Source: Nitrospirae bacterium CG2_30_70_394 (GTDB taxonomy: Bacteria > CG2-30-53-67 > CG2-30-70-394). From it: 46,741 nt of DNA. Location: the NCBI GenBank assembly GCA_001873295.1, contig MNYW01000083.1:299-47039 (forward strand), read 5' to 3'. Below, piece after piece: positions 5,251-45,497 of the stretch (its first letter is position 1; every line of letters begins with the position of its first letter). The position numbers and the translations under genes are program-made. Below the pieces are notes generated by a model, which made no database searches, had not been told where the DNA came from, and saw only the letters and a list, made by a program, of their open reading frames with translations.

Positions 5251-5499
5251 GGCCACGCGGTGCACGGAAGGCGGGAGCTCGCCGAGATGGCGCGGCGCCA
5301 AAGGTGGCGTGCGCGCCGGGCCACGGCGGTGTACGGAAGGCGAAAGCTCGCCGAGCGGCTCCCCGGGCCGAGGTTGAGGCCACACGCCACGGCGCTGTGC
5401 CGAACGTGGAGGCCCGCGGCGCCCTCTCTCAAGGCGGGGGTGAAGCCGCGCGGCCGGCCCAAAGGGCTGTGCCGAACGTGGAGGCCCGCGGCGCCCTCT
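5251..5499. repeat. Degenerate four-unit direct repeat array (period 66-72 bp)
   Basis: Exact 34-bp repeat GCTGTGCCGAACGTGGAGGCCCGCGGCGCCCTCT at 5394-5427 and 5466-5499. A near-identical pair lies at 5251-5286 and 5319-5355. The two pairs align with each other at about 26/36 positions. Confidence 0.8.
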
Positions 5500-5565
5500 T
5501 TCGCTGTGGATCGGGTTGGCTCTCCCCGGCGGTTTTCCGCGGCGGGTGTGGCAGGATGGCCACTT

Positions 5566-6384
5566 ATGTCCCTCTTCCTCCTTCGCCGCCTCCCCCTCGC
5601 CGTGGTGTCGCGCCTCGTGGGATGGGTGGCGCGGCGCCGCCTGGGGCCGCGCCTGCTCCAGCCACTCCTGCGAGCCTACGCGCGCCACTACCGGGTGAAC
5701 CTCGGCGAGGCAGAAACGGCGCTGACCGCGTATCCCACGGTCGAGGCCTTTTTCACTCGCCGCCTGCGGCCGGGCAGCCGGCCGGTGGCAACGACGCCCC
5801 TCGTGTCGCCGTGCGACGGCTGGCTGGCCCCGGCGGAGCGGATCACCGGGGATCGGGCGATCACCGCCAAGGGGTACCCGTACCGACTCGCCGACCTCCT
5901 GGGTCCGCTCGCGCCCTGGGGGTCGCGCCTCGCCGGCGGTCAGTGGCTCACCCTCTATCTGTCGCCGCGCGACTACCACCGCTTCCACGCCCCCGCGGCG
6001 ATGGTGGTGGTGGAGAGCTGTCACCTCCCGGGCCGGCGCTGGCCGGTGAATGGCTGGGGGATCGACCACCTCCCGGACCTCTTCGTGGAGAACGAGCGGG
6101 TGGTGGTGGCGGCGGAGACCACTGCGGGGTGGCCGCTGGTGATGGTCTTCGTGGCGGCGCTCAACGTCGGGCGGATCGAGCTACACGGGGTGGGTCCCGC
6201 TACCGGTCAGGGTAGCCGCCACCACTGGGCGCTCACCGCGGGCGAGGAGATGGGCTACTTCGGCCTCGGTTCGACCATCCTCCTGCTCTTGCCGCCGTCC
6301 GCGCCTCCGCTGCTGGCGCGCGGCGGTGGCGCCCCTATTCGGGTCGGTGAGGCCTTGGCGAACGCGCCGCCTGGAGGGCGATGA
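5566..6384 (+). CDS. psd: Phosphatidylserine decarboxylase proenzyme
   Basis: FFTRRLRPGSRP, SPCDG, YLSPRDYHRFHAP, ENER and GLGST self-cleavage motif. Start at ATG 5566. Confidence 0.9.
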   Translation: MSLFLLRRLPLAVVSRLVGWVARRRLGPRLLQPLLRAYARHYRVNLGEAETALTAYPTVEAFFTRRLRPGSRPVATTPLVSPCDGWLAPAERITGDRAITAKGYPYRLADLLGPLAPWGSRLAGGQWLTLYLSPRDYHRFHAPAAMVVVESCHLPGRRWPVNGWGIDHLPDLFVENERVVVAAETTAGWPLVMVFVAALNVGRIELHGVGPATGQGSRHHWALTAGEEMGYFGLGSTILLLLPPSAPPLLARGGGAPIRVGEALANAPPGGR

Positions 6385-6916: not shown

Positions 6917-7028
6917 CGGGGTTCGCTTCGTTTTCGGGGAGGTGGGGAGTTGGGTTAGGGATGGGGTCGGCCGCCGGCCGCGGGCGATCTTTTCACGACG
7001 CTATCCGTACCTGCCCGCTCTCCCGCCC

Positions 7029-9490: not shown

Positions 9491-9560
9491 GGTGGGTCCG
9501 TCGCGACCACCGCACCCGGGGAGCGCACCGCGCTGCTCCAGCCGCCGTGGCGGCAACAGC

Positions 9561-11300: not shown

Positions 11301-11408
11301 CGGCGGCTCGATTCGTTTGGCGTCGTGGTTCTCTCGCGACGCGACCAGCAAGCAGGTGGAGGAGATCGGCGGCGGCTCGATTCGTTTGGCGTCGTGGTTC
11401 TCTCGCGA
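11301..11408. repeat. Exact 39-bp direct repeat pair with 30 bp between copies
   Basis: CGGCGGCTCGATTCGTTTGGCGTCGTGGTTCTCTCGCGA at 11301-11339 and 11370-11408. Confidence 0.9.
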
Positions 11409-18720: not shown

Positions 18721-19213
18721 GTCCGTACCCTCCGTGCGGCCCGACGGGACCGAAATGGGGCGGCAGTGTACCAGTCAGCGGCGGCGGGCAGTAGCGGCGC
18801 CTCGCCTCCAGAGTCGGTCGCTTTGGCGATCGGCGCGCCCACCCGCGGGCCCGATCCGGGCCGAGAGCCGGTCGCAGCCGGAGACCGGGACAAGGTCCGG
18901 CTCGCCCCTACGGACCGGTCGCAGGCAGGACCGCCGCGTCGCGGGTGGTGCGGGCGGTGGCCGGAGCCAGGCGCGGCGGTACCGCCGGTGTGGGCGCCCT
19001 AGATTCCGCACGGGTCGTGGATGGCGGCCGGGAGGGGCGGGGCGCGCGGCGGGTTCTGAGGCGACCGCCAGCCGGTCGCGGGTCGGCGCCCGCCGCGGGA
19101 TGCGGACCGGTGGAGGCGTGATCGCTCGGCCGGCGCGCCGGCGGGTGAGCGAGATGGGTGGGCAACACACTGAGGGTGCGGCCCCGTCGTTTCGGGTAGG
19201 CGTTCCGTGCGCG

Positions 19214-19303
19214 GGCGACGCGGTGCGCGCGGGGGTGGGTCGGTGGGGGGAGATGAGCGGGTTGGCCACCGCTACGGCGACGCGGTGCGCGCGGGGGTGG
19301 GTC
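19214..19303. repeat. Exact 28-bp direct repeat pair with 34 bp between copies
   Basis: GGCGACGCGGTGCGCGCGGGGGTGGGTC at 19214-19241 and 19276-19303. Confidence 0.88.
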
Positions 19304-19307
19304 TCCC

Positions 19308-19370
19308 TTGATGGGTGTCAAAGCCGCGCCGGGCGTGGCTTTGCGCGGAAAAGAAGCGGCAAGCTAGTGT
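19308..19370 (+). promoter_or_regulatory. FNR/CRP-like box plus candidate sigma70 promoter of the Rieske/cyt b operon
   Basis: TTGAT-GGGT-GTCAA (19308-19321; one mismatch to FNR consensus), then TTGCGC (19341-46)-18 bp-TAGTGT (19365-70). Confidence 0.5.
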
Positions 19371-25667: not shown

Positions 25668-26366
25668 ATGAGTAGACACCCTGTCCTTTCCACCACCGCC
25701 ACCCTCGCCATGGCCCTCGGCCTCGCCGCCTCGCCGGCGAGCGGAGGCGACCTCAGCGGCAAGATCACCTACAAGGGCACCCCGCCCGCGGCGTCCATGC
25801 TGGACACCAAGTCCGACCCGGTCTGCCTCAAGGCCCACGGCACCATCCCCTCGGAAGAGGTGGTGGTGGGCGCGGGTGGCGGCCTGCAGAACGTCTTCAT
25901 CTACGTGAAGGAGGGGCTGGCGGGACAGAAGTTCGAGCCCACCGCAAACGCGGCGACCCTCGACCAGCAGGGGTGCCAGTACCGGCCCCACGTCCTCGGG
26001 GTGATGGCCGGGCAGAAGATCGACATCCTCAACAGCGACGAAACCCTGCACAACGTCCACCCGGTCCCCAAGGACAACCGCGAGTGGAACCTCGCCATGC
26101 CCTTCAAGGGGCAGAAGGTGACCAAGAAGTTTTCCAAACCGGAGATTGGCATCCACGTCACCTGCAACGTCCACGGCTGGATGAGCAACTACATCTGCGT
26201 GGTCGACAACCCCTTCTTCGCGGTCTCTGGAAACGACGGCACCTTCACCATCGCCGGCCTCCCGGATGGTGACTACACCCTCGCCGCCTGGCACGAGAAG
26301 TTTGGCGAAAAGACCGCCAAGGTCACCGTCAAGGGCGCCACCGCCACCACGTTCAGCTTCGAGTAG
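25668..26366 (+). CDS. Exported cupredoxin-like / carboxypeptidase-regulatory-like domain protein
   Basis: Signal peptide, LDQQGCQYRPHV, LHNVH, CNVHGWM and GTFTIAGLPDGDYTLAAWHE; strong AGGAGG RBS. Confidence 0.8.
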   Translation: MSRHPVLSTTATLAMALGLAASPASGGDLSGKITYKGTPPAASMLDTKSDPVCLKAHGTIPSEEVVVGAGGGLQNVFIYVKEGLAGQKFEPTANAATLDQQGCQYRPHVLGVMAGQKIDILNSDETLHNVHPVPKDNREWNLAMPFKGQKVTKKFSKPEIGIHVTCNVHGWMSNYICVVDNPFFAVSGNDGTFTIAGLPDGDYTLAAWHEKFGEKTAKVTVKGATATTFSFE

Positions 26367-26397
26367 AGCCGCCGGCCGCCGGCCGCGGAGCAAGATC

Positions 26398-26434
26398 AGC
26401 CCCCCGGACTCCCTGAGCCCGGGGGGCTTTTGTT
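26398..26434 (+). terminator. Rho-independent terminator of the Rieske/cyt b operon
   Basis: Stem AGCCCCCCGG / CCGGGGGGCT followed by TTTGTT. Confidence 0.8.
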
Positions 26435-26518
26435 GTGGCTCGTGCCCGCGGAGAGATCCACCCCACGACGCCGGCGCGGTTGTCCCTTTTGCCTTCGCGG
26501 GAGGCTGGGTCTTGTGGG

Positions 26519-29059: not shown

Positions 29060-29272
29060 GGCGGGGAGAGAGGGGGGGGAAAAAGGGCGGGCAGCGGGGA
29101 TGGGGCGAAGGGTGGAGGAAGAGGTGGGGAAAAGGTCGGTCCGGTGGGCTTCGGATCGTTTGGGGGCGCAGGCAGCGGGGATGGGGTGGGGCGGGTGGGG
29201 CGATCCGGCGGGCTCCACCGCTCACGCCAACCTCTTTTGCCGGCTACCCCGCGGTCGTGGCGCGCGGCGCGT

Positions 29273-30127
29273 TCACTCCCCGGTGAGGTGGGCAGCTTCG
29301 GTCTCCGCCGCCGCGTCGGCCAGGGCGACGCGGTTGCGGCCACCGTGCTTGGCCTGATAGAGGGCGCCGTCGGCGCGCGCGATGAGGGCCTCGCCGCTCA
29401 CCGGGTGTTCCACGTCGAGGCGGGAGAGGCCAATGCTGATGGTGATCGGCCCGGCCTCCGGCGGGAGGGCGAAGGGGTGGCTGGAGACGGTGGTCAGCAG
29501 CCGGTGGGCGAGGCGGAGCGCCTCGGTCTCGTCGGTGTAGGGGAGGAGGATGACGAACTCCTCGCCGCCGTAACGGGCGGAGATATCACTCGCCCGCAGC
29601 CCCGAGCGGATCAACTCGGCGATGGTCCGTAGCACCCGGTCGCCGGCCGGGTGGCCGTAGGTGTCGTTCACCCGCTTGAAGTGGTCGATGTCGATCATCA
29701 TCAGCGACAGGGGCAGGCGGTGGCGGCGGGCGGCGCGCAGGTACTCCGCCAACCGCTCGAAGAAATAGCGCCGGTTGTACATGCCGGTGAGCTCGTCGGT
29801 GACCGAGATCGCCTCCAGGCGGAGGTTGAGCCCCTCCATCAGGGTCGCCTGCGCCGCCGCCTCCCGCTGCTCGCGGACGATCGCGTCGAAGGCGCGACCG
29901 AGGAGATAGCCGGCGATGGCGAAGCAGAGCCCCGAGCCGAGGGTCATGTAGCCATAGAGGAGGGCGTGGTTGGCGAGCTCGACCTTCACCTCCGGCCACG
30001 ACCACAGCCCCTGGTGGGGAATCTGGAGGATGAACCAGCCAAGCGGCGCGATGAACGCGATGGCGACGCCCAGAAGCGGAAAACGCCACCGCCGGGGAAT
30101 GGGGTCTCTGACGCGATCCGCGGCCAT
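29273..30127 (-). CDS. Membrane-bound diguanylate cyclase
   Basis: Two TM helices, coiled coil, TDELTGMYNRR, DIDHFKRVND, RASD I-site and GGEEF. Confidence 0.92.
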   Translation of the reverse strand: MAADRVRDPIPRRWRFPLLGVAIAFIAPLGWFILQIPHQGLWSWPEVKVELANHALLYGYMTLGSGLCFAIAGYLLGRAFDAIVREQREAAAQATLMEGLNLRLEAISVTDELTGMYNRRYFFERLAEYLRAARRHRLPLSLMMIDIDHFKRVNDTYGHPAGDRVLRTIAELIRSGLRASDISARYGGEEFVILLPYTDETEALRLAHRLLTTVSSHPFALPPEAGPITISIGLSRLDVEHPVSGEALIARADGALYQAKHGGRNRVALADAAAETEAAHLTGE

Positions 30128-30200
30128 GGCGCTACTTTCCCGTGGTCCAGGCCGTCCGTCAAAGCGGCGTGGTCGCCCACGCCCGGGGACGCCAAGGAGA

Positions 30201-30416
30201 GCGACCGGTCGTGACCTCGGCGTCTGTGCGCGAGACCCGCCTTCCAGCCCCGCGCCTCGCCCGATTGCTGCGCCCGCGACGCCCACCCCTTTCTACCTTC
30301 AATTTCTCCTGCGTTGAGTCGTCTGCCCCCCTTTCCGATTCGCGCCGATTCGCAGTGAATCGCGGCCCGCTCGACAAGCCATCTTCCCTCCCCCTTTCTA
30401 CTTCCTACTTTCCTTT
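30201..30416 (-). repeat. Dispersed modular intergenic repeat, copy 1
   Basis: Reverse complement of 30336-30389 matches 42142-42195 and 46236-46286. 30241-30295 matches 42235-42289. 30201-30216 is the exact reverse complement of 46361-46376. Confidence 0.85.
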
Positions 30417-30446
30417 GCGCGAGCCCTGCCTTGTGGGCCGCGGCCG

Positions 30447-30484
30447 AAAGCAAAGGGCCCGGGGGTCGATCGACCCCCGGGCCC
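30447..30484 (-). terminator. Terminator of the RND operon
   Basis: Perfect 30-bp palindrome GGGCCCGGGGGTCGA/TCGACCCCCGGGCCC (30455-30484) followed by TTTGCTTT on the minus strand. Confidence 0.75.
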
Positions 30485-30517
30485 CGGGTGCTACGGCTTG
30501 GGTGGGTGAGTTGCGCC

Positions 30518-33500
30518 TTAGGCGCTCACCGGCCCCTCTTCGGGCGGGGTCTCGGGCGGCGGTGCGGCGGCCTGCTGTTCGCGTCGCAGCCGCGCCTTCT
30601 GCTTCGCCTCCTTGAAGGTCCGCTTCTTCTCCCGTACCTCCTGGTGCTGGAGGTGGTTGAAGAGGTAGATCGGGACCATCACCAGGGAGAGCAAAGTGGA
30701 GGCGCCGGTCCCCCAGATCAGGGAGGTGGCGAGGCCGTTGAAGATCGGGTCGAGGAGGATGACGAAGGCGCCGACGAAGACCGCCGCGGCGGTGAGGAAG
30801 ATCGGCATGGTCCGCAGGGCGCCGGCCTCGATGCAGGCGTCGCGCATCGACATCCCCTCCTCACGGCGCTCCATGGCGAACTGCACCACCAAAATCGAGT
30901 TGCGGACGATGATCCCGGCCAGGGCGATCATCCCCATCATCGAGGTGGCGGTGAACCAGGTTCCGGTGAGCCAGTGGCCGGGCATGATCCCCACCAGGGT
31001 GAAGGCGATCGGCGACATGATGACGCCGGGCACGGAGAAGGAGCGGAACCAGCCCACCAGCAGGACCCACATGACGAGTAGGGCAATGCCGAAGGCGCCA
31101 CCCATGTCGCGGAAGGTCTCGACGGTGGTGTGCCACTCGCCGTCCCACTTCACCACCACATCCTTCTCCGTCTTCGGCTGGAGGAAGAGGTGCTGCTTGA
31201 TCGGCCGCCCCGCTGGGGTGGTGATCTCCTGAATCGGACCCCACATGTTGATGAGGGCGTAGACCGGCGAGGCGTTGCGGCCGGCGACGTCGCCGGTGAC
31301 GTAGATCACCCGTTGGAGGTTCTCGTGGTAGATCGACTTCTCCTCCACGGAGCGCTCCACCTTGACCAGCTCGGCGAGGGAGATCACCCGACCCGACGGC
31401 GTCGGCAGGCGGATCTCCTTCAGGGCCTCCACGGAGTTGCGCCGCGCCACCGGGAAGCGCAGGTGGATGGGGACCGGGGCGAGCTCGCCGCTGAGGCGCA
31501 GGTGGGAGATGTCCATCCCCGCCATCGCCATGCGCAGGGTCTTCACCACCATCTCTTTGGAGAGCCCCACCTGGTTCACCTTCTCGTCGTCAACGACGAG
31601 CGTGTCTTTTGCCTGGTCGTCCTCGTAGTACCAGTCCACGTCCACCACGTCCTGGGTGTGGTCGAAGACCTCGTGGACCTGCTTGGCCACCGCCACCTGG
31701 GACTCACGGTCGCCGCCGTAGATTTGGCAGACGAGGGTGGAGAGGTTGGGCGGGCCGGGGGGCGGCTCGAGCACCTTGATCCGCGCCCCATACTTGTCGG
31801 CGATCGCGTGCAGGGCTGGCCGGACACGGGTGGCGATGTCGTGGTTCTGCTCGGTGCGGAACCGCTTGTCGACGATGTTCACCTGGATTTCGGCGACGTT
31901 GGACCCCTCGCGCATGAAATAGTGGCGTACCAGGCCGTTGAAGTTGAAGGGCGAGGCGGTGCCGGCATAGATCTGGTAGTCGGAGACCTCGTTTACCGTG
32001 CGCAGGTAGTCGCCGAGCTCCATGGCGACCCGCGTGGTGTCTTCGAGGGTGGTCCCCTCGGGGGTGTCGATGACGACGCTGAACTCGCTCTTGTTGTCAT
32101 ACGGCAACAGCTTGACGAGCACCATCTTGGTCCCCACCAACCCCATTGCCGCCATCATCATCACCATCACCGTGAGATAGCAGATCCACTGTAAGCCGCG
32201 GTGGTCGAGGATCGCCCCCATGGTCCGCTGGTAGAAGTGGTAGTAGGCGGTCTGCTTGGCGTAGTCGGCGTGCGACTCCTCTACATCGGTGCGCCGCCGG
32301 GTGGTGATCGGTTCGGGCTCGTAGTGTTTGAGGAACTTGTTGGCGCACCACGGCGTCACCATCAGGGCAACTGCCAGGGACATGAGCATGGCGGCGGAGG
32401 CGTTCACCGGCATGGGGCGCATGTAGGGCCCCATGAGGCCGCCCACCACCGCCATCGGCATGAGGGTGACGATGACCGTGAAGGTGGCAAGGATCACCGG
32501 CGGCCGCACCTCGTTCACCGCGTAGATGATCGCCTGGATCGGCGGCAGCCTGCGCATAGAGAAGTGGCGGTGGATGTTCTCCACGTCGACGATCGGGTCA
32601 TCTACCAAGATGCCGATCGACATGATCAGGGCGAACAGGGTCACCCGGTTCAGGGTGTAGCCGATGGACCAGCTCCAGAAGAGGGTGATCGACAGCACCA
32701 CCGGCACTGCGATGAGCACCACCAGCGCGTCGCGCCAGCTCAGAAAGACGCCCACCAGGAGGATGACCGAGACGGTGGCGATCCCGAGGTGGAAGAGGAG
32801 CTCATCCGCCTTGTGGCCAGCGGTGAAGCCGTAGTTTCGGGTGAAGGTGTAGTGGACGTCCTCGGGGATGAGCTGGGAGCGGATCTGTGCCAGCTTCTGC
32901 TCCACCGCCGCGGCGGCGTTCACCGAATTCGTCCCCTTCTTCTTGGCGACCGTGATCGTCACCCCGGGGATGGTGTGGCCGTGTGCATCCGCGGGCCATT
33001 CGATCGTCTTGCCCAGGGCCTCTTCCTCGGCCTGGTATTGGGGACCGACGCCGAACAGGACGTAGTTGTCGACCTCCCCTGGACCGTCCTCAATCTCGGC
33101 CACGTCGCGCAGATAGACCGGCCTGCCCTGGAAGGTCCCCACCACCAGGTTGCCCACCTCGCGGGCGTTCTGCAGGAAGGTACCCGCGTCCACCAGCAAC
33201 TCCTGGTCGTTCACCTGGAACTTGCCCGCCGGCATCGACCAGTTCGCCGCCTGAACCACCTGCGCGATCTGCGGCGGCGAGGTCATGTGGGCCGCCATCT
33301 TCTGGGAATCGAGGATGACGCGGAGGGTGCGCGGCCGGCCGCCGATGATGTCGACCTCCGCGGCGTCGGGGATCTGGGCGAGCTGGTCGGCGATCGGCTG
33401 GGCCATGCGCCGCAGGTCGTAGTCGCCGTAGTTTTCGCTGTACAGGGTGACCGCGACCTGTGGGACGTCGTTGATGTCCCGCAGCTTGATCATCACCTGC

Positions 33501-33934
33501 ACCATCGGGCTGCCCGGGGCGAAGCTGACTCCGCCGCCCGGCGCCTTGTCGATGTTGTTGAAGATCTTGTCGTAGAGCTGAACGAGGGAGCGCTGCTGGT
33601 CGGAGTTGACGTAGAAGCGCGCGGTAACCACACCATAGTTGGCGTGGCTCATGGAATAGACGTACTCCACCGGGAAGTCGTCGATTCCCCAAATCAGCCG
33701 TTCGAGCGGCTTGACGACCTGGGACTCCACCTCCTCGGCGGAGGCACCTGGTACCGCGACGATGATGTCCACCATCGGCACCACAATCTGCGGATCCTCC
33801 TCGCTCGGGGTCACGAGGACCGCGAAGAGGCCGAGGATCAGGGCGGTGCCGATGAATAGCGGCGTCAGCTTGCTGGTCGTGAAATAGCCGACCAGCTTGC
33901 CGAGGAAGGTCTCGTCGGTCGTGTAGTGGGCCAT
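30518..33934 (-). CDS. RND efflux transporter permease subunit (AcrB/CusA superfamily)
   Basis: 1138 aa; GILVDDPIVDVENI, GIIVRNSILVV and GALRTMPIFLT; two large periplasmic loops. Confidence 0.93.
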   Translation of the reverse strand: MAHYTTDETFLGKLVGYFTTSKLTPLFIGTALILGLFAVLVTPSEEDPQIVVPMVDIIVAVPGASAEEVESQVVKPLERLIWGIDDFPVEYVYSMSHANYGVVTARFYVNSDQQRSLVQLYDKIFNNIDKAPGGGVSFAPGSPMVQVMIKLRDINDVPQVAVTLYSENYGDYDLRRMAQPIADQLAQIPDAAEVDIIGGRPRTLRVILDSQKMAAHMTSPPQIAQVVQAANWSMPAGKFQVNDQELLVDAGTFLQNAREVGNLVVGTFQGRPVYLRDVAEIEDGPGEVDNYVLFGVGPQYQAEEEALGKTIEWPADAHGHTIPGVTITVAKKKGTNSVNAAAAVEQKLAQIRSQLIPEDVHYTFTRNYGFTAGHKADELLFHLGIATVSVILLVGVFLSWRDALVVLIAVPVVLSITLFWSWSIGYTLNRVTLFALIMSIGILVDDPIVDVENIHRHFSMRRLPPIQAIIYAVNEVRPPVILATFTVIVTLMPMAVVGGLMGPYMRPMPVNASAAMLMSLAVALMVTPWCANKFLKHYEPEPITTRRRTDVEESHADYAKQTAYYHFYQRTMGAILDHRGLQWICYLTVMVMMMAAMGLVGTKMVLVKLLPYDNKSEFSVVIDTPEGTTLEDTTRVAMELGDYLRTVNEVSDYQIYAGTASPFNFNGLVRHYFMREGSNVAEIQVNIVDKRFRTEQNHDIATRVRPALHAIADKYGARIKVLEPPPGPPNLSTLVCQIYGGDRESQVAVAKQVHEVFDHTQDVVDVDWYYEDDQAKDTLVVDDEKVNQVGLSKEMVVKTLRMAMAGMDISHLRLSGELAPVPIHLRFPVARRNSVEALKEIRLPTPSGRVISLAELVKVERSVEEKSIYHENLQRVIYVTGDVAGRNASPVYALINMWGPIQEITTPAGRPIKQHLFLQPKTEKDVVVKWDGEWHTTVETFRDMGGAFGIALLVMWVLLVGWFRSFSVPGVIMSPIAFTLVGIMPGHWLTGTWFTATSMMGMIALAGIIVRNSILVVQFAMERREEGMSMRDACIEAGALRTMPIFLTAAAVFVGAFVILLDPIFNGLATSLIWGTGASTLLSLVMVPIYLFNHLQHQEVREKKRTFKEAKQKARLRREQQAAAPPPETPPEEGPVSA

Positions 33935-33937
33935 GAC

Positions 33938-35122
33938 CTACATCGCCTCCATGATCGGGCTGCCGTCTTCCACCTCGTTCAGCTTGTTGAGGACGATGCG
34001 TTCCCCTGCCTTGAGGCCGGCGATGATCTCGACCTGCGAGTCGCTACTGCGGCCGAGGCGGACGAAGCGGAGGTGCGCCTTGTTGTCAGCCCCCACCACG
34101 AAGACGCTGGTGAACTGGTACCACCGCTTCACCGCGTCGCTTGGGATGTAGATCGACTCCGCCCCTTGGCCCACCGCGAAGGTGGCGCGACCAAACATGC
34201 CCGCCTTCACCACCGTGGTCTCGGGGAGGTTGACCCGCACCATGTAGGTGCGGCTCATGGGATCCACCGACGGGATAACCTCGCTCACCGCCAGTTGGCT
34301 TGCCAGGCCGGCAGACTCGATCTCGACGTTCACCGCCTGTCCCTGGACCACCTGCGCCCCCTCGTCCACCGGCACCGTCAGGCGATAGGTGCGCGCCTCA
34401 ATGGTGAACAGCGGGTGGCCGGGGGCGGCGAGGTCACCCACGTCCGCCATCTTCTGGGTGACCCGGCCGTCGAAGGGGGCCTTGACCACCGTGTAGTCCT
34501 GGTAGATCTCAGCGGACTTGAGCCCCGCCTCCGCCTGGCTCTTCTGCGCTTCGAGGGCCGCGATCTGCGCCTCCGCCTGGGCAACCATCGCCTGGGCGCC
34601 GGCATAGGCAGCGTTCACATCGTCGAGCTCCTTCTTCGCAAAGGAACCCTCGCCGTAGAGCTGGTTGAACCGCTCGTGGTGGGCGGTAGCCGCGATGAGC
34701 TGCGCCTCGGCCGCCCGCTTCGCCGCCCGGGCCACCTCGATTCCCTTGGAGGCCGCGTGTACCCCGGCGTTGGCCTGGGCAACCTTGGCGCTCACCTCGC
34801 CATCGTCGAGGACGCACAAGACCTGGTGGTGGCTCACGTCGTCGCCCTCCCGGACCTTGATCTCCTTGATCTTGGCCATGATCTGCGGCGCTACCTGCGC
34901 CACCTCGTGCGACTCGACGGTACCCATCACGGTCACCGTGCGTGAGGGCGCGGACTGCTGCACCGTGCCCACCTTCACGTCGGTCACCGTCATGGCGGCG
35001 TCGGGCGTCTCTCCCGCCTCGACCTTGTCAGGACCAATGATCGGTAGGTTGCCCTGATCCCACCCGATCATCAGGTAGCAGGGGAAAACGAGGAGAAGGA
35101 AAAACTTGAGCCAGAAGCGCAT
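33938..35122 (-). CDS. RND periplasmic adaptor (membrane fusion protein)
   Basis: Lipoyl halves VREGDDV and KAPFDG.V, helical hairpin, VDPMSRT and AGMFG. Start at ATG 35122. Confidence 0.92.
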   Translation of the reverse strand: MRFWLKFFLLLVFPCYLMIGWDQGNLPIIGPDKVEAGETPDAAMTVTDVKVGTVQQSAPSRTVTVMGTVESHEVAQVAPQIMAKIKEIKVREGDDVSHHQVLCVLDDGEVSAKVAQANAGVHAASKGIEVARAAKRAAEAQLIAATAHHERFNQLYGEGSFAKKELDDVNAAYAGAQAMVAQAEAQIAALEAQKSQAEAGLKSAEIYQDYTVVKAPFDGRVTQKMADVGDLAAPGHPLFTIEARTYRLTVPVDEGAQVVQGQAVNVEIESAGLASQLAVSEVIPSVDPMSRTYMVRVNLPETTVVKAGMFGRATFAVGQGAESIYIPSDAVKRWYQFTSVFVVGADNKAHLRFVRLGRSSDSQVEIIAGLKAGERIVLNKLNEVEDGSPIMEAM

Positions 35123-35393
35123 GGGCCCCTCCCGGAGCTGGGCGGCGTGTCCAGGGAACACGCCGCGGGATACTGGTGACCGCGAAAATTATGAGATGAC
35201 GGTTAGGCGGCGAGGAATGGATCGAGTCTGACAATGCACTCTACCGAGATCAAGATGGGAGATCTTCCCCCCGGGCGACTGCGCAACCCGAAGTCTGCCT
35301 CGCAATAGGCATACGAGAGCCCCCTGCTTAAGAATGGTTGCGAACTTTTTTTCCGCCCCCGCCCCAATCGCTACAGGGGCCGGGCTCGGGCGG

Positions 35394-37630
<2,237 letters not shown>

Positions 37631-37631
<1 letters not shown>

Positions 37632-37948
37632 CAGGCGGGCTCCATGGTGCACTTCAACGGGTGTTCCTGGCGGCGGGCATAGGCGGTCACCTGCGCCACC
37701 TTGGTTTCCGCCACCTCGCGGGTGAAGACGCCGGCAACCCCGACCCCGTTGCGGTGGACGTTCATCATGATTTCGTAGGCGCTCGCCTCGTCGAGGTGAA
37801 AAAAACGGGTGAGGAGCTCCACCACGAACTCCATGGTGGTGTAGTCGTCATTGTGCAGCAGCACCTTGTACATGGGCGGCCGCACCACCTGCGACCGCTC
37901 GCGAGTCCGTGTCTCGCCCTGCCCGCCGGGCCGCTCGTTGCCTGCCAT
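37631..37948 (-). CDS. clpS: Clp protease adaptor ClpS
   Basis: [31 protein letters not shown] and HPLKC. Confidence 0.96.
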
Positions 37949-38111
37949 GGCGCCAGTCTACCCGTGGAGCCCACCACACGGCAGCACCACACGGCAGCAG
38001 GTAAAGTAGCTTGGGGTCAGGTCTTTACTTTATACCCCTGGTCCAACACCGGACTCTGATGCGCCACGTCACCCCAATCCGCTGACCCCTGCGAAGGGGC
38101 GCGAAGGGGGA

Positions 38112-38224
38112 GGGGGCAGACGCAGTAAAAGGTAGGAAGTAGGAGGGGGAAGGAGGGAGGCGAGGGGGGGCGCGGGCGAACGGCCGGGCATGGGTTGTCG
38201 CCGGGAAGGCAGTCTCGCGCACAG
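38112..38224 (+). repeat. Dispersed modular intergenic repeat, partial copy
   Basis: Shares GGGGGCAGACG, the GTAGGAAGTAG arm and GGAAGGC..GTCTCGCGCACAGA with the 30.2-30.4 kb copy. Confidence 0.6.
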
Positions 38225-38422
38225 AGACGGAGACGCGCGCGGAGGGGGTGGCGCCGGCGGTGAAGCAACCGGAGAACGGTGCGCGCCGGCGCGAAGGGGC
38301 GCCGCGGGTCGGGGACTTTTCGAGTGCGAGCGTGGGTTGCCAGCGCCGTGGCGGGCGCGGCCGTGCCCAGTGGGGTGGGGTTTGCCACGGTGGGGCTACC
38401 ACGGCGCCGGCGCGGAGCAGCG

Positions 38423-40453
38423 ATGGTCCCCCCCTTCACCAACGACCTGATCCACGAGACCAGCCCATATCTCTTGCAGCACGCCCACCAACCGGTGGCG
38501 TGGCGGCCGTGGGGGGAGGCGGCGTTGGCGGCGGCGCTCCAGCTCGATCGGCCGATCCTGCTATCCATCGGCTACGCCGCTTGCCACTGGTGCCACGTGA
38601 TGGCCCACGAGTCGTTCGCGGACGCGGAGACCGCCCGCTTCATGAACGACCACTTCATCTGCATCAAGGTCGATCGCGAGGAGCGGCCCGACCTCGACCA
38701 GCTCTACCAGACCGCGTTGCAGCTCCTCACCGGGCGCGCCGGTGGCTGGCCCCTGACCCTCTTCCTCACCCCCGCTGGCGCGCCGTTTTTCGGCGGCACC
38801 TATTTTCCGCCCGCCGACCGCCATGGCCTCCCCGCCTTCCGCCGGGTCCTCGCCGGGGTGGCGCGCCACTACCGGGAGCAGCGGGGAGAGGCGGCGGCGG
38901 ACGGCGGCCGGGTGGTGGCGGCGCTGGCGGAGATGGAGGCGGCGAGCCCGCCCGGGAGAGTCGGCGCGCCCCTCGTGGCCGGCGCGGTGGAGGAGATCGC
39001 CGCCCAGGTCGACCCGGTCCACGGCGGCGTCGGCGGCGCCCCCAAGTTTCCCCAGACCGCCTGCCTCACCCTGCTGTTGCGCGCCGGCGGCCGGGCGCGC
39101 GCGCTGGCGCTGCTCACCCTCGACGCGATGGCCGCGGGCGGCATCTACGACCACGTGGGTGGTGGCTTCGCCCGCTACTCGACCGACGAGCTGTGGCTCG
39201 TCCCGCACTTCGAGAAGATGCTCTACGACAACGGCCTACTCGCCGCCCTCTACCTGGAGGCGTACCAGGTGACCGGCAAGCGCGCCTACGCGCGGGTGGT
39301 GGAGGAGACCCTCCGCTATCTCCAGCGCAACCTCTACCGCGACGGCGGCGGCTTCTACGCCAGCCAGGACGCGGACAGCGAGGGGGTGGAGGGGCGGTAC
39401 TACGTCTGGAGCCGCGCTCAGATCGACGCCCTTCTCGGCAGTGAAGCCGAGCTGTTTTGCCGCGCCTACGGGGTGAGCCAGGCGGGCAACTGGGAGGGGC
39501 AGAACATCCTCCATTTGGCCCGTTCGACCGCCGCGCTGGCGGCGGAGACGGGGGTAGCGCCTCCAGCATTGGACGAGCTTTTGGCCCGCGGCCGCGCGCG
39601 CTGCCTCGCCGCCCGCGAACAGCGCCCTGCCCCGTCCACCGACACCAAGGTGATCATGAGTTGGAACGGCATGGCGATCTCCGCCTGCGCCCGCGCCGCC
39701 CTCTGCCTCGATCTCGACTGGGCACTGGCGATGGCCACCGCGAGCGCCGACTTCCTGTGGGAGGCGAGTTGGCGCGCCGGCCGCCTCCACCGCACCTGGA
39801 CCGACGGCGCGGCGCGCCACGATGGCGTCCTCGACGACTACGCCTACCTTGGCGCCGCCCTCCTCGACCTCTACGAGGCGACCGGTGAGGGGCGCTTCCT
39901 GGCGCGCGGGGCCACCCTCGGCGAGGCGATCGTCGACCGCTTCTTCGCCGGCGACGGAAGCGGCTTCTACCTCACCGCCGAGGATGACGACCGCCTCATC
40001 CACCGGCCGCGCGCGCGCCATGACCAGTCGATCCCGTCAGGGGCGGCGGCGGCGTGCGCCCTGCTCCTGCGCCTGGCGGTGTTCACCGACAACGCGCGGC
40101 TGCAAGAGGCGGCAGAGCAGACCCTCGCGCACCACGCCGGCGCCATGGCCGCCCAGCCGGTCGCCTACGCCGGTCTGTTGGCGTGCGTCGAACCCGTCCT
40201 CGATCCGCCCGTGGAGATCACCCTGGTGGGCGACCCAAGCGCGCGCCGCGCCTGGGTCCGCCGCCTTGCCCAGCTCCACCTCCCGCACCGTGGGGTCTGC
40301 CACCTGCCGTGCGACCCGCCGGTGGCCGGCGCCATCGCCGCCGGCAAAGAGGCCCAGGGCGGCGGGGTCACTTGCTACCTGTGTCGCCACACTACCTGCA
40401 CCCCGCCGATGCGCCGCTGGGAGGAGCTGGAGCGGGCGCTGGCGGGTGGCTGA
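38423..40453 (+). CDS. Thioredoxin-domain protein (DUF255/YyaL/SPATA20 family)
   Basis: [51 protein letters not shown] and DADSEG. Confidence 0.93.
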
Positions 40454-40611
40454 CACCGGTGGCGGGATTGGGGACAATGGCGGTTTGCGGGCGCGGCGAC
40501 CGGCCGCGACCGCGTTGGGTTCACCGCCGGGCCGTTGGGCGAGCGCCAGCCCACCGGGCTGGCCGGCGCCCGGGGGTTGGCGGGCAGATAGGTAGAAGAG
40601 AGCGAGAAACC

Positions 40612-42060
40612 ATGAGCCCTGAGACCGCCGCGATCCCCGCCATCCATTTCGGCACCGACGGCTGGCGGGCGCCGCTCGGCTGCGGCCCCACCTTCCTGCA
40701 GGTCGGCAGGATCGCCGCGGCGGTGGCCGACTGGCTCGCCGAGGAGGGGTGGCACGGCCGGCCGGTGGCGATCGGCTACGACACCCGCCTGCTGGCTTCG
40801 GTGCTGGCGGAGGAGGCGGCGCGGGTCCTGGCTGGCCGCGGCGTTGCGGTGCGCCTCGCCAAGACCTTCATCCCGACTCCGTGTCTCTCCTACATGGTCA
40901 CCGCCGAGACCTGCGCCGCGGGGCTGATGATCACCGCCAGCCACAACGCACCGAACTACATCGGGGTGAAGGTGAAGGCGTCCCACGGCGGCTCCATCGA
41001 CGACGCTGCCGCGGCCAGGATCGCGGCGCGGGCCAGCACGCTGGTTGGGGCCGACCTGCCGCCGCTCACCACCACCTTCGACGGCCTCAAGCGGGCGAAG
41101 CAGATTTCCGTGGTGGATGAGCGGCGCGCCTACCTCGCCCACATGCTCCGTTGCCTCGGCCCGGTGCCCGAGCGACGGTGCAGCTTCTCCCTGCTCGCCA
41201 GCTCCATGCGCGGCGCCACCCAAGGGCTCTTGCCCCAGGCATTCGCCGACCGGGGGTTGAACATCAGCGAGATCGAGAACGAGCGCGACGTCACCTTCGG
41301 CGGCCGCAAGCCGGAGCCGGTGGCGGCCAACCTCGCGTTGGAGCGCAAGCTGCGCATCCTCTGGGATCGCGACGTGGTCTTCGTCACCGACGGCGACGGC
41401 GACCGCCTGGCGTTGATCGACGAGCGCGACCGGGTGCTCACCGCCCACGACCTCTTCCTCATCCTCCTTCGCCACCTGGTGGAGGTGCGCGGGCAGCGCG
41501 GCGCGGTGCTGCACGCGGTCAACCTGTCGCGCGCCATCCCGGCGATGGCGCGCCACTACGGCCTTCCCGAGCGGCGCGTCCCGGTGGGGTTCAAACACGT
41601 GGCCGCGGCGATGGTCAGCGGCGACGTTCTCATCGGCGGCGAGGAGGCGGGGGGGATCGGCATCCAGGGCTATCTCAAGGAGCGCGACGCGATCTACCTA
41701 GCGCTGTTGGTGGCGGAGGCGATGTGGGAGCGGCGCCAGCTCCTCGGCCGGATGGTGGATGAGTTGCGCGCGGAGTTTGGGGTTGGCCCGTACGAGCGGC
41801 GTGACCTCACCCTGACCGCAAGCGAGCGGGCGCGGGCGAACGAGCGGCTCGCCGGCGAGGTCCCGGCGACCTTGGGCGGCCGTGCGGTGGTCGAGGTCGA
41901 TCGGATCGACGGCCTGCGCCTCACCCTCGACGACACCACCTGGCTCCTCGCCCGCCCGTCCGGCACCGAGCCTTTGGTGCGCCTCTACGCGGAGGCCGCC
42001 CCCGGCGGCGACCCCGCGCGCTGGCTCGACGCCGCGCAGGCGTGGCTCATCGCGCCGTAG
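40612..42060 (+). CDS. Phosphoglucomutase/phosphomannomutase family protein
   Basis: FGTDGWR, TASHN, DGDGDR, VGFK, GEEAGG and RPSGTEP. Confidence 0.92.
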   Translation: MSPETAAIPAIHFGTDGWRAPLGCGPTFLQVGRIAAAVADWLAEEGWHGRPVAIGYDTRLLASVLAEEAARVLAGRGVAVRLAKTFIPTPCLSYMVTAETCAAGLMITASHNAPNYIGVKVKASHGGSIDDAAAARIAARASTLVGADLPPLTTTFDGLKRAKQISVVDERRAYLAHMLRCLGPVPERRCSFSLLASSMRGATQGLLPQAFADRGLNISEIENERDVTFGGRKPEPVAANLALERKLRILWDRDVVFVTDGDGDRLALIDERDRVLTAHDLFLILLRHLVEVRGQRGAVLHAVNLSRAIPAMARHYGLPERRVPVGFKHVAAAMVSGDVLIGGEEAGGIGIQGYLKERDAIYLALLVAEAMWERRQLLGRMVDELRAEFGVGPYERRDLTLTASERARANERLAGEVPATLGGRAVVEVDRIDGLRLTLDDTTWLLARPSGTEPLVRLYAEAAPGGDPARWLDAAQAWLIAP

Positions 42061-42075
42061 GGGCGGGGCCGGGGT

Positions 42076-42346
42076 GGAGGTAGAAAGGGGGAGGGCAGAG
42101 GTGAGGGGGGGCGCGGACGCCGCGATCGGGAGGCGCGGGAAAGGGAAGATGGCTTGTAGAGCGGGCCCCGAACCACTGCGAATGGGCGCGAATCGGGGAG
42201 GGAAGGAGGCGAGGAACGCGCGGGAGGAGGTAGATAGAAAGAGGTGGGTGTCGCAAGCGAAGCAATCGGGCGAGGTGCGGGCCGGGAAGGTGCGCTCGCG
42301 CGGCGCCACCGCACCGGGGGGTGAAGCGCCGCCCCTTCCTACCTCC
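42076..42346 (+). repeat. Dispersed modular repeat, copy 2, bounded by 15-bp inverted repeats
   Basis: GGAGGTAGAAAGGGG (42076-42090) and CCCCTTCCTACCTCC (42332-42346), one mismatch. The interior is homologous to the 30.2-30.4 kb and 46.2 kb copies. Confidence 0.8.
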
Positions 42347-42576
42347 TACTACCTTCCTTTGCGTTGCGTTGTGTCCATCCCCCCTGGCTTCCGTCCTTCA
42401 CCCCCCCCTCCCCCCTGTTGGTTACCTTCCCCTCCGCGCCTCTGCGCCTCTGCGCGAGCCCGTCTTTCCAGGCCCCACGGTGGTTGGCGATGCGGCTGGC
42501 GACGCCGGCGCACGAATCGACGCTACACTGGCGAGCGGGCGGCGAGCGGAGAGGGCGCGGCTCGGGAGGAGAGGCG

Positions 42577-42918
42577 ATGGTGGAACGACCCGCAGGGGAG
42601 GTAGCGGCGGCTCAGGGCATCGCGGCGGTCCTCGCCGCGGAGCGCGACGCGCGGGACGCGGTGGCGGCGGCGCGCGTGGCGGCGGCGGAGATCGTCGCCG
42701 CGGGCCGGGCGCGGGCGCGCACAATCTTGGAGCGCGGCGAGCAGCGGCTCACCCGGGCGCGAGAGCGGGTCGAGGGGCGGGTCGCCGGGCGGATCGCCGC
42801 GTTGGAAGAGAAGGCGGAGCGCCTGCAAGGGCCGGTGGAGGTGGACGACGCCACCCTCCAGCGCCTGGCCGGTGCGGTGCAGCGGCTGGCGGCGGAGCTC
42901 ACCGGGGGGGAGGCGTGA
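42577..42918 (+). CDS. Putative V/A-type ATPase peripheral stalk subunit (G/H-like)
   Basis: Short Ala/Arg/Glu coiled coil (VLAAERDA..AEIVAAGRARA); first gene of a translationally coupled V-ATPase cluster. Confidence 0.6.
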   Translation: MVERPAGEVAAAQGIAAVLAAERDARDAVAAARVAAAEIVAAGRARARTILERGEQRLTRARERVEGRVAGRIAALEEKAERLQGPVEVDDATLQRLAGAVQRLAAELTGGEA

Positions 42919-43622
42919 GGGCCACCTTTGCCTACGCCCAGGCGCGGATCGGCGCGCGGCTGGCGCGCCACCCGGAGGCGGCGGTGTGGGGTCATCTCGC
43001 CACCGCCCGCACGGTGGCCGCCTACCTGACCGCGGCGCGCCGCTCACCGGTGGCGCCGTGGCTCGCCAGCCTCGCCTCCACCGCCACCGCCCATGAGATC
43101 GAACGCACCCTGCGCGCCGAGGTACGGCGGGCGGTGGCGGAGGTGGCGGGCTGGGTCACCCCGGCGTGGCGACCGGCGGTGGGATGGCTGCGCCACCTGA
43201 CGGTGGTGGAGCTGCTGGCGGGGGTGTGGAGCGGGGAGGCGGTGGCCTGGCTGGCGCCGGACCCCGCCCTCGCCGCCTATGGGGGCGGGGAGGGGGCCCT
43301 TGCTTCCCTCGGCCTGACCGAGGTGGCGGCGGCGGTGCGCGCGGGTACCTCGCCGCTCGCCGCCTGGCTCGACGGCTGGCAGAGGCGGTGGCCCGACGCC
43401 TCCCCAGCGCCGCTGGCCGATCGGTTACGCCGCCTGGGTTCGCCCTCTCTGGGGGCGGGCGACGCGGCACAGGGGGTGCGCCGGGCGCTCCTCCACCTGA
43501 TCCACCGCCAGGCGGCGGAGCCGGTCGTCCCCCTTGCCTACCTCACCCTGGTGGTCCTCGACCTCGCGACCCTGCGCGGCGAGCTGGTGGCGCGCGCCTG
43601 CTTCGAGGGGGGCGAGGGGTGA
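42915..43622 (+). CDS. Putative divergent V/A-type ATPase subunit C-like protein
   Basis: GTGA coupling at both ends; FAYAQARIGAR start and LAYL..LRGELV end; position before subunit I. Confidence 0.55.
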   Translation: MRATFAYAQARIGARLARHPEAAVWGHLATARTVAAYLTAARRSPVAPWLASLASTATAHEIERTLRAEVRRAVAEVAGWVTPAWRPAVGWLRHLTVVELLAGVWSGEAVAWLAPDPALAAYGGGEGALASLGLTEVAAAVRAGTSPLAAWLDGWQRRWPDASPAPLADRLRRLGSPSLGAGDAAQGVRRALLHLIHRQAAEPVVPLAYLTLVVLDLATLRGELVARACFEGGEG

Positions 43623-45424
43623 GCCTCCGTCCCCGTCCGGCCCGCTGGTTCGAGCTGGTGGTGGTGCGCGGCGAGGCGATGCGTGCCGCCGCGTCGCTCG
43701 CCGCCACCGGCGCAATGGAGGTTGAGGCTTTGCCCGGCGCCCCCCTGCACGGCGCCTCCCTCACCCGTTCGATTGCCCGCTTTCGCGACCTCGCCCGCCG
43801 CCACGGTCGCTACTGGCCGGCGGTGGAGGTGGCTCTCTCTCCCCTGACCCGGTCACCGCGGCCGGCGGTGGCCGCGGCCTTGCGCCGTCTCGCCCGGTGG
43901 GAGCGGGAGGGCGAGGCGACGATCCGCCTCCTCCAGGGGTTCGAGGCGGAGCGCGACCGGTTGCGCCTCTGGCAGACGGTGGCAGGAAGGCTGGGCGCCA
44001 GCGGGGTGGAGGTGGCGGGCCTGCTCGCGGCCGGCCCCGCCCTGGCGGTGGAGGTTGCCCTCCTCCCCGCGGTCGCCGCCCGGCTGGGGGTGGCGCGCCC
44101 GATCCTCACCCTGCAGGTGGCCCTCGACAGTAGCCGCACGGCGGTGGTGCTGGTGGGCCCGCCGCCCGAGGTGGCCCGCGAGGTGAGCCGCCTGGTGGAG
44201 CTGCGGGGCCGGCTCCTTACCCGCCTGGCGTGGCCCGGCGGGGAGGAGTTGGTGGGGTGGCTGGCGGCGCGCCTGGCCACGGTGGAGGGGGAGATCGAAC
44301 GCGCCTATGTCGCCCTCTTCGCCCTGGCGGAGCGGCTGGACCTCGCCGCCGCCCTCGCCGACCTCACCACCGTCGCCTGGTTCGTCGAGCGGGTCGGGCC
44401 GGTGGCGGCCACCCCCCTCTTCCTTCGTCTCACCGGCTGGACCTCCGACCCCGCCGCCTTGGTGCGCGCCTTGGAATGGGATGGGGTGGCGGCGCTGCTG
44501 ACCCTGCCGCAGCCGCCCGCCGGGGTGCGGCCGCCGTCGCTGCTGGTGAACCCGCCGTGGGTCCGTCCCTTCGAGCTCTTTGCCCAGGCGTTGGGCACCC
44601 CGGGAGAGGGGGAGGTGGACCCGTCGCCGTTGCTCGCCGTGGTGGTGCCGCTGCTGTTTGGCTACATGTTCGGCGACGTCGGCCAAGGCCTGGTCCTGGC
44701 GGCGCTCGGAATCGGACTGTGGCGGCGCGGGCCGGTGGCGCGGCTGCTCGCCGCCGGTGGCGTCGCCGCCGCCCTCTTCGGCCTCCTCTTTGGCTCCCTC
44801 TTCTGCCGCGTCGATCTCCTCTCCCCCCTCTGGCTGCACCCCCTCGACCAGCCAATCGCACTCCTCGTTTTTCCGATCGTTGCCGCGGTCCTCCTCCTCG
44901 CCGGCGGCCTCTGCCTCGCCGGGTTGGAGGCGGTGTGGGTGGGGGAGGGGGGGCGGTGGCTGCGGGAGGAGGGGGCGCTCCTCTTCGTCTACCTCGGCCT
45001 CGCCGGCGGCATCGCCTTCCGGCCGCTTTTCGGCCTGGCGGTGGTTGGGGCCCTCTACCATCTGGCGGTGGCACTCCTCGCCGGTGGCGGGGCCGGAGCC
45101 GCCGTCGCCCTGGGCCGGCTGGTGGAGGAGGGTCAGCGGCTGGGGGTGAACACCCTCTCCTTTGCGCGGGTCGGCGCCTTTGCCCTCGCCCACGCCGGCC
45201 TCGCCTCGGTGGTGGTTACCCTCGCCCACGCCGCGGGCCCCTTGGCGCCGCTGGTCTGGGTGGTGGGCAACGCGGCGGTCATCGTGCTGGAGGGGCTGAT
45301 CGTCTCCATCCAGACCACCCGCCTCGTCCTCTTCGAGTTCTTCGCCCGCTTCCTGCGCGGCGAAGGGCGGCCGTTCCAACCCCTCACCCCGCCCACCCTC
45401 GCGGAGGTCGGCCATGGTGGGTGA
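43619..45424 (+). CDS. V/A-type ATP synthase subunit I (a)
   Basis: PPSLLVNP..RPFE, EVDPSP, FGYMFGDVGQG, NTLSFARVGAFALAH (essential Arg), IQTTRL..FEFF and GRPFQP. Confidence 0.92.
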   Translation: MSLRPRPARWFELVVVRGEAMRAAASLAATGAMEVEALPGAPLHGASLTRSIARFRDLARRHGRYWPAVEVALSPLTRSPRPAVAAALRRLARWEREGEATIRLLQGFEAERDRLRLWQTVAGRLGASGVEVAGLLAAGPALAVEVALLPAVAARLGVARPILTLQVALDSSRTAVVLVGPPPEVAREVSRLVELRGRLLTRLAWPGGEELVGWLAARLATVEGEIERAYVALFALAERLDLAAALADLTTVAWFVERVGPVAATPLFLRLTGWTSDPAALVRALEWDGVAALLTLPQPPAGVRPPSLLVNPPWVRPFELFAQALGTPGEGEVDPSPLLAVVVPLLFGYMFGDVGQGLVLAALGIGLWRRGPVARLLAAGGVAAALFGLLFGSLFCRVDLLSPLWLHPLDQPIALLVFPIVAAVLLLAGGLCLAGLEAVWVGEGGRWLREEGALLFVYLGLAGGIAFRPLFGLAVVGALYHLAVALLAGGGAGAAVALGRLVEEGQRLGVNTLSFARVGAFALAHAGLASVVVTLAHAAGPLAPLVWVVGNAAVIVLEGLIVSIQTTRLVLFEFFARFLRGEGRPFQPLTPPTLAEVGHGG

Positions 45425-45497
45425 GAATCGAAACTCGCGGACATGCCAGCGATGTGGTGCGCGCCCACCCTCGCGGAGGTCGGCCATGGTGGGTGAG
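45390..45497. repeat. Exact 36-bp direct repeat pair with 36 bp between copies
   Basis: CGCCCACCCTCGCGGAGGTCGGCCATGGTGGGTGAG at 45390-45425 and 45462-45497. The first copy contains the subunit I stop codon. Confidence 0.92.

Follow-up and report, generated by a model that had tools for sequence, protein, structure and literature searches.

Two size classes of CRISPR-like duplication units, probably left by off-target spacer integration, in the genome of a groundwater Nitrospirae bacterium

Direct-repeat units having the dimensions of a CRISPR repeat-spacer-repeat module are found at four sites in a 46,741 nt stretch of the genome of the groundwater bacterium Nitrospirae bacterium CG2_30_70_394. 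The stretch, referred to as the window, spans residues 299-47039 of contig C149 (C149:299-47039) in an assembly of 2.65 Mb (182 contigs, 70% GC, precisely 70.3%), which is 94.28% complete and 0.48% contaminated. Each unit consists of an exact duplication enclosing a spacer-sized insert, and the four units, named after their starting positions, are 5394, 11301, 19214 and 45390. They are probably scars of Cas1-Cas2-type spacer integration at sites that are not CRISPR arrays, in other words “neo-CRISPR” units, and belong to a genome-wide set of loci which fall into two size classes. For class A, which includes unit 19214, an off-target event of this type is very likely; for class B, which includes units 5394, 11301 and 45390, the same origin is favored with less confidence. 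The pairs had been described in a first-pass annotation, which viewed them as one-spacer proto-arrays possibly seeded by a host integrase, a reading that the present results support. Positions, lengths and gaps of the four pairs were confirmed by repeat search and in the raw sequence, and the four repeats have indeed no sequence in common. Chance is ruled out as the source of the pairs, because exact 28-mers recurring less than 100 nt away are expected ~1e-7 times in 2.65 Mb (match probability ~0.29 per base at 70% GC), and the background is 0-6 pairs per period.

The whole genome was scanned with a single criterion (at least 26/28 matches, periods 30-200), excluding the native CRISPR array and setting aside loci with conflicting periods or complex tandem structure. 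The distribution of periods is not flat, in line with the first-pass expectation. Clean pairs at periods 60, 61 and 62 number 4, 42 and 5, those at periods 69 to 74 number 4, 4, 7, 10, 6 and 4 (35 in total), and each of the remaining periods accounts for 0-6 pairs. A scan for exact repeats alone gave the same picture, with a spike of 36 pairs at period 61 and a hump at 70-74. Class A (period 60-62) thus includes 51 pairs at 38 loci, class B (period 69-74) 35 pairs at 35 loci. Taken together, the ~73 loci are spread over more than 50 contigs, approximately one per 36 kb, and carry at least 86 inserts.

Duplication and insert lengths in class A are most frequently 28 and 33 nt (15 cases) or 29 and 32 nt (16 cases), followed by 30 and 31 (4 cases), 27 and 33, and 29 and 33 (3 cases each). 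Such a pattern corresponds to 28 + 33 events whose borders are blurred by fortuitous matches. The partition is independently fixed, because the limits of the stretches that inserts have in common with other genomic sites fall there: in period-61/62 cases the copied stretch starts 27-29 nt past the start of the left copy (9 of 10 cases), and ends no more than 2 nt from the start of the right copy. In Escherichia coli, type I-E integration produces a 28-bp duplication and a 33-bp insert, and class A would accordingly have the geometry of a type I-E system. The exact run is at least 27 nt long in 37 of the 51 class A pairs. Eight class A loci host 2-5 inserts between identical copies, and several sites reach 3-6 repeats. 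At one four-repeat locus (C143:38964-39200) the initial ~20 nt of the first “spacer” (period 64) equal those of the downstream flank, and the first event there must therefore have duplicated more than 28 nt.

Class A duplications are centred on a GC palindrome, CGCGCGCG, in which five of eight core positions are conserved in 31-35 of the 38 loci, and a sixth in 26. At 12.3 bits, the score of the median site is reached by only 147 other genomic positions. The same fitting applied to three random intergenic sets gave 5.7-6.5 bits and 26,309-42,701 positions. Class A duplications are also prone to fold into hairpins (-5.64 vs -3.45 kcal/mol for random 28-mers, p = 7e-9). A palindrome of this kind is typical of GC-rich type I-E repeats. 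A slight folding excess was observed for class B duplications as well (p = 0.017). As had been anticipated for insertions surviving only where genes stay intact, loci of both types reside mostly in non-coding DNA: no overlap with open reading frames (ORFs) having high GC at third codon positions is seen for 31 of the 38 loci in class A and for 24 of the 35 in class B, in comparison to 30.4% of random segments (n=5,000).

Some of the inserts derive from the host chromosome. Of the 86 inserts, 15 (11 in class A and 4 in class B) match other genomic sites beyond the 99th percentile obtained with shuffled controls, and most of the significant matches are exact and full length. Two further self-derived class A inserts, at C40:1757 and C39:25-57, are not part of the set of 86. 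The first-pass proposal to compare the gaps with the rest of the genome therefore bore fruit, since some gaps are copies of distant places. As an example, the insert of unit 19214 is identical at 34/34 positions to C27:3097-3130, where AAG precedes the protospacer in one orientation. Among 12 self-derived class A inserts, 11 have G at one end (or C, if the other strand is read), ~58% being expected by composition. In E. coli, type I-E adaptation likewise brings into the array a G derived from the PAM (protospacer adjacent motif). At class A loci with multiple inserts G is, on one strand, the first base of most inserts, as read by eye. The GC content of inserts is 67.8% in class A and 69.5% in class B, that of the genome is 70.3%, and the spacers of the native array average 64.2%. 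An all-against-all comparison of inserts with exact repeat borders and native spacers revealed no match between any two sequences; the only core common to two inserts, those of unit 45390 and of a unit on C116, emerged from the genome search. Transposons, or miniature inverted-repeat transposable elements, generating target-site duplications were considered and rejected, as the inserts, this core apart, are not multi-copy, and the duplications are 28-39 nt long.

Some additional features of these sequences may be mentioned. Two class A protospacers, C127:9215-9248 and C27:3097-3130, are located 150-420 bp from class B units (C127:9400 and C27:3552, respectively); the chance that a protospacer lies within such distance of a class B unit is ~2.5% per protospacer. 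Spacer-sized matches exist also outside the units. The intergenic C5:6999-7030 is a 32-nt exact copy of the gene end C116:10377-10408, window residues 46231-46263 and 30362-30394 are a 33-nt exact copy in inverted orientation, window 42470-42503 matches exactly 34 nt at C17:297-330, and window 38660-38698 matches exactly 39 nt at C8:14435-14473; none of these sequences has a flanking duplication. Approximately 13 extra pairs of spacer-sized matches (32-35 nt) were evaluated as candidates and discarded, because duplications do not exceed the control, and several resemble segments of paralogous genes.

Class B units have a centre at 36-38 nt for the duplication and 34-37 nt for the insert, with a wider spread than class A. 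A native CRISPR array of comparable dimensions is present in the genome. Contig C171 opens within this array, which is regular and counts 27 spacers of 34-38 nt; its repeat measures 36 nt, its periods are 71-74, and housekeeping genes come after it. The comparison with native CRISPR systems suggested by the first-pass annotation is hence informative, since the hump in the period distribution coincides with this array. The array is assigned to type I-G because the same repeat is found, in the same-genus genome G001, 186 bp downstream of a Cas4g/Cas1g fusion gene (787.5 bits, cut-off 560) and cas2. The only fully templated class B insert, at C171:3385, is copied from contig C144, and TTC stands beside the protospacer in one orientation. 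TTC is a PAM of type I systems equipped with Cas4. The other Cas1 genes of the class are either of type I-C, or unclassified and followed by a Cas1-like gene. In the genome G003 a pair of the latter kind adjoins an array of period 68-69, and enzymes of this sort could be at the origin of those class B units that have a period of 69-70, among them window unit 11301. In G001-G003 the unclassified Cas1 is high in GC, and the Cas1-like gene that follows matches only the N-terminal domain.

The components of the four window units are as follows.

5251..5386, two older, diverged copies of the unit 1 repeat (~36 nt), starting at ~5251 and 5319, periods 69 and 66
5394..5427, unit 1, left copy, 34 nt exact, extendable to 44 nt at 91% identity (5387-5430/5459-5502)
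5428..5465, unit 1, insert, 38 nt, class B, period 72
5466..5499, unit 1, right copy, 34 nt exact
11301..11339, unit 2, left copy, 39 nt exact
11340..11369, unit 2, insert, 30 nt, class B, period 69
11370..11408, unit 2, right copy, 39 nt exact
19214..19241, unit 3, left copy, 28 nt exact, containing the class A core GTGCGCGCGGGG
19242..19275, unit 3, insert, 34 nt, class A, period 62, exact copy of C27:3097-3130, opposite strand
19276..19303, unit 3, right copy, 28 nt exact
45390..45425, unit 4, left copy, 36 nt exact, in which the ORF for V-ATPase subunit I (43166-45424) has its stop codon
45426..45461, unit 4, insert, 36 nt, class B, period 72, with a 33-nt core at 45428-45460
45462..45497, unit 4, right copy, 36 nt exact

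All four units sit between housekeeping genes, in or at the border of intergenic DNA as originally noted. Unit 5394 is located between genes encoding an Fe-S subunit and phosphatidylserine decarboxylase, unit 11301 between TrkH and a response regulator, unit 19214 between an ORF of no assigned function and a glutamate-synthase-like oxidoreductase, unit 45390 between V-ATPase subunits I and c. In keeping with the absence of cas genes noted for the window, no match to Cas1, Cas2e, Cas7e or Cas6e was found in the entire contig, and the only match to the Cas3 core is a generic helicase (21.8 bits). The window and six loci were also searched against Rfam at the gathering threshold, and no family was matched.

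The insert core of unit 45390 (33 nt) is identical to that of a period-79 unit located at C116:10472. Among metagenome contigs, this core was retrieved only in the C116 locus of the same organism. Other repeated sequences are found in the vicinity. A further 30-nt pair (45521-45550/45580-45609; 80% identity, period 59) has GGCTCTCTCGCGGGT in common, and a similar sequence, GGTTCTCTCGCGA, closes the repeat of unit 11301. Approximately 35 nt at 46463-46499 match dozens of sites in two genomes of the same genus at 85-94%, and this sequence has the appearance of a REP-like element dispersed in the genus.

Independent assemblies provided the support that had been asked of reads. Contigs of the Logan collection, obtained with a different assembler from four aquifer or groundwater runs, which may include the source sample, contain the inserts along with parts of both repeat copies of units 1-3. 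Unit 5394 is represented by pieces covering 5398-5495 in 3 of the 4 runs, unit 11301 by a piece covering 11310-11399 in 1 of the 4 listed runs (X4), and unit 19214 by pieces covering 19039-19271 and from 19246 onward in 3 of the 4 runs. The C116 unit is carried by two metagenome contigs from other assemblies (65.7 and 52.5 kb), at 99.95-99.98% identity. A conserved 30-nt stretch of the window had no match in metagenome contigs. Insert pieces in Logan contigs reach 50-85% of the depth of the flanks, and were not retained as a sign of empty alleles, the measure being too indirect and a weak hint only. At window positions 19039-19053 the contigs of 4 runs add 28 letters and a second copy of these 15 nt, which include a GGCGCGCGG core; this 43-nt length variant, which is missing in the assembly, was evaluated as a class A unit, and rejected since its dimensions are wrong.

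The units appear to be lineage-specific and recent. Samples of two genomes of the same genus (291,583 bases of G001 and 362,101 bases of G002, 654 kb overall) contain no pair at periods 60-62 or 69-74, while ~18 loci would be expected at the density reported above. The events are plausibly younger than the split from the two species, because the units are absent there, and class A runs are mostly at least 27 nt exact. Genes flanking the units match at 79-89% in G001 and G002; the intergenic DNA is missing or unalignable, and is therefore silent on polarity. The relatives are devoid of the entire 45395-45731 interval (337 bp vs ~5 bp) and of most of 18795-19342 (548 vs 84 bp), and spacer units account only in part for this excess length. 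In G002, two runs of N residues (L052:16158-16370 and L067:1273-1485) are flanked by a 57-nt duplicated sequence with a period of 155, and look like artefacts of scaffolding gaps.

A set of results weighs against off-target integration, and must be confronted with the above. A consistent trinucleotide PAM is not recognizable at 12 class A protospacers (AAG and GAG twice each, AGG, CGG and others, several orientations being ambiguous), and 71 of the 86 inserts have no match to a source. The first-pass suggestion to compare the gaps with both genome and virome was thus fruitful on the genome side only, as five inserts tried against viral contigs had no exact match. The inserts of unit 45390 and of its C116 counterpart differ in the bases at both ends of the common core, and simple capture from a single source does not explain them because of this difference. 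A clean single-copy empty allele, which relatives had been expected to provide, was not obtained from any of them. In class B, apparent duplication lengths (23-48 nt) are broader than a strict ruler predicts, duplications are no more similar to the native type I-G repeat than controls are (14.8 vs 14.6 of 36 positions, p = 0.24), and have no common motif (information content 6.4 vs 6.9-7.2 in controls). Finally, the first-pass annotation invoked a host integrase, and took a lack of cas1 as telling against its own reading. No intact cas1 was found in the 94%-complete assembly, where the sole trace is a 20-bit fragment, and Cas2e, Cas7e, Cas6e, Cas1e, or Cas3 above cut-off, are missing as well. 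The fragment lies in an ORF (C29:23180-24070; L003:11181-12071) beside ccoG, which combines N-terminal scraps of Cas1 and Csm6 (cas_NE0113). In a survey of 14 genomes of the phylum, typed Cas1 proteins were of type I-C, type I-G or unclassified, and type I-E Cas1 was not found; class A is therefore left with no identified integrase or parent array.

That cas genes are absent counts for little when the assembly is incomplete and binned. The lack of cas1 is softened by the position of the native array at a contig break, and by the occurrence of cas4/cas1-cas2 next to the same repeat in G001. In relatives, cas loci of types I-C and I-G show a GC content of 61-62%, and low-GC cas islands of this sort often escape binning. 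With no type I-E gene in the assembly or in the 14 genomes, the I-E-like activity may have been supplied by a mobile adaptation module present only transiently, or else by an unrecognised integrase. Self-targeting could have left the genome in its present state, with an apparent lack of cas genes.

The alternative that survives best concerns class B only. These units could have been formed by a non-CRISPR process which adds ~72 nt, as the sum of an insert and a compensating target duplication, class A being the only product of CRISPR-type integration. The hypothesis would account for targets featuring neither a motif nor similarity to the native repeat, and for the sum of duplication and insert being held to 69-74 nt while the apparent duplication varies over 25 nt or so. 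Exact genomic matches for only 2 of 35 inserts (two more match at 90-93%), and an assembly without an intact cas1, speak for it too. Yet, class B periods coincide with the 71-74 of the native array. The spread in length is largely border blur, because most of the short apparent duplications reach 34-38 nt once 1-2 mismatches are allowed, and TTC, although in a single case, flanks the source of the templated insert at C171:3385. Moreover, class B units do not occur in the 654 kb of same-genus DNA, and one of the two genomes sampled has the same array and cas genes. We regard this alternative as improbable, and integration of CRISPR type as the better account of class B.

That the pairs are decayed tandem duplications, or short minisatellites in which the gaps represent diverged neighbouring sequence, is far less credible as a general explanation, and was already contemplated in the first-pass annotation for three of the units. 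For unit 5394 the idea has some merit. The unit is the final pair of a degenerate array of four head-to-tail copies, starting near 5251, 5319, 5385 and 5457 (periods 69, 66 and 72). Each of the two older copies is followed by a dissimilar spacer-sized stretch; in the alignment the first ~36 columns are conserved, the rest poorly. The repeat part is conserved throughout, and two of the gaps are partially alike. Unit 5394 is either an old array with three inserts or a decayed tandem repeat. The situation is different at the other sites. Local self-comparison of units 11301, 19214 and 45390 detected nothing other than the repeat pair, the gaps of these three units cannot be aligned along their whole length to flank or neighbouring unit, and the insert of unit 19214 exactly copies a distant locus. 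Tandem duplication, furthermore, predicts neither two sharp periods, nor a target palindrome, nor a 28 + 33 partition.

Equally hard to sustain is the view that the units are ordinary small CRISPR arrays, either remnants or passengers of mobile elements, rather than insertions into native DNA. Several class A loci with 4-6 repeats do resemble small type I-E arrays. On the other hand, the 38 class A loci feature 38 different repeat sequences which are alike only in the core, and the window units are, unlike a bona fide CRISPR array, two copies of a unique sequence each, none of which resembles the C171 repeat. In unit 45390 the V-ATPase subunit I ORF terminates within the left copy, the host chromosome provides matches for 15 of 86 inserts, and no mobile-element signature was seen to flank the four window units. 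Artefacts of assembly or binning might be suspected in a metagenome-assembled genome fragmented in 182 contigs, in which many units are close to contig ends, but can be practically dismissed, since Logan contigs from four runs span inserts and flanking repeat parts of units 1-3, the C116 unit is found on two long contigs of other assemblies, and artefacts would not yield a conserved target palindrome or exact 33-nt copied inserts.

According to the off-target integration model, a Cas1-Cas2-type integrase would join a spacer-sized fragment to two staggered positions one repeat-length apart, and gap repair would duplicate the DNA between the staggered joints, giving rise to the duplication-insert-duplication structure. 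Two integrase specificities may have acted across the chromosome. The former, responsible for class A, would have I-E geometry and target CGCGCGCG palindromes, and several sites would have been hit again, growing to 3-6 repeats. The latter, responsible for class B (~36 + 36 bp), would have the geometry of the organism's own type I-G array. Some inserts would have been captured from the chromosome itself, the rest from other DNA. Survivors may be mostly intergenic because insertions within genes have been removed by selection. Whether all this amounts to a natural, genome-wide burst of promiscuous CRISPR adaptation, in which two integrases placed at least 86 spacers at ~73 sites, about one sixth of them self-derived, and generated dozens of proto-arrays, some of which went on growing, is a proposition for which we see even chances.

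Open questions concern the ways in which new CRISPR arrays originate, and the frequency at which a genome is damaged by its own adaptation machinery. The genome described here would offer a natural catalogue of ~73 integration sites, one class of which is sequence-specific and one is not, along with proto-arrays at different stages of growth, and a direct view of self-derived spacers and of the selection confining survivors to intergenic DNA. Since many public aquifer runs contain the genome at a depth of 25-100x, existing data allow allele frequencies and timing of the events to be tested. Isolated arrays are said to arise at sequences resembling the repeat.

Off-target integration has been described for overproduced E. 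coli Cas1-Cas2 (Nivala 2018; PMC7054753, bioRxiv 10.1101/148544), and the neo-CRISPR loci of Nivala, Shipman and Church 2018 (Nat Microbiol 3:310) are cited also in PMC6698737 and PMC11788318. As described in these sources, the E. coli loci and those reported here are alike in many respects: a duplication of repeat length surrounds an insert of spacer length at non-CRISPR sites, dimensions are those of type I-E (28 + 33, as in class A), sites can grow into small arrays, and inserts are in part self-derived. They differ because the units of CG2_30_70_394 are natural and not engineered, fall into two size classes, and their class A integrase was not found in the assembly or in 14 genomes of the phylum. 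The preprint bioRxiv 10.1101/148544 mentions only “circumstantial evidence” in two other species, whereas ~73 loci are present here in 2.65 Mb. A literature search revealed, among accessible papers, no report of a genome with dozens of neo-CRISPR loci.

Off-target acquisition has been proposed as one origin of isolated arrays (Shmakov 2020, CRISPR J 3:535, as cited in PMC13142298). Such arrays are similar to the units in being located away from cas genes, and the class A targets feature a repeat-like GC palindrome. In contrast, the units described here mostly host a single insert, the class A set includes 38 different “repeats”, and class B targets are unlike the native repeat. In vitro, Pyrococcus furiosus Cas1-Cas2 integrates off-target at sites with repeat-like features, according to PMC6698737. 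As in that system, non-CRISPR DNA with features of a repeat would be chosen, and two attacks would occur one repeat-length apart; unlike the products obtained in vitro on plasmids, the units analyzed here are chromosomal, inherited, and found across a natural population. Solitary repeat units, and the mini-CRISPR arrays carried by viruses (Faure 2019, Medvedeva 2019), have a single spacer between two repeats and are remote from cas genes too, and in the summary given in PMC8616872 their repeats are identical or close to the host CRISPR repeat, and reside in viruses. The units described here duplicate unique chromosomal DNA between housekeeping genes. Off-target integration is a process already known, and what is unusual is its scale, the existence of two classes that differ in target rules, the build-up of 5-6 repeats at some sites, and the missing type I-E genes.

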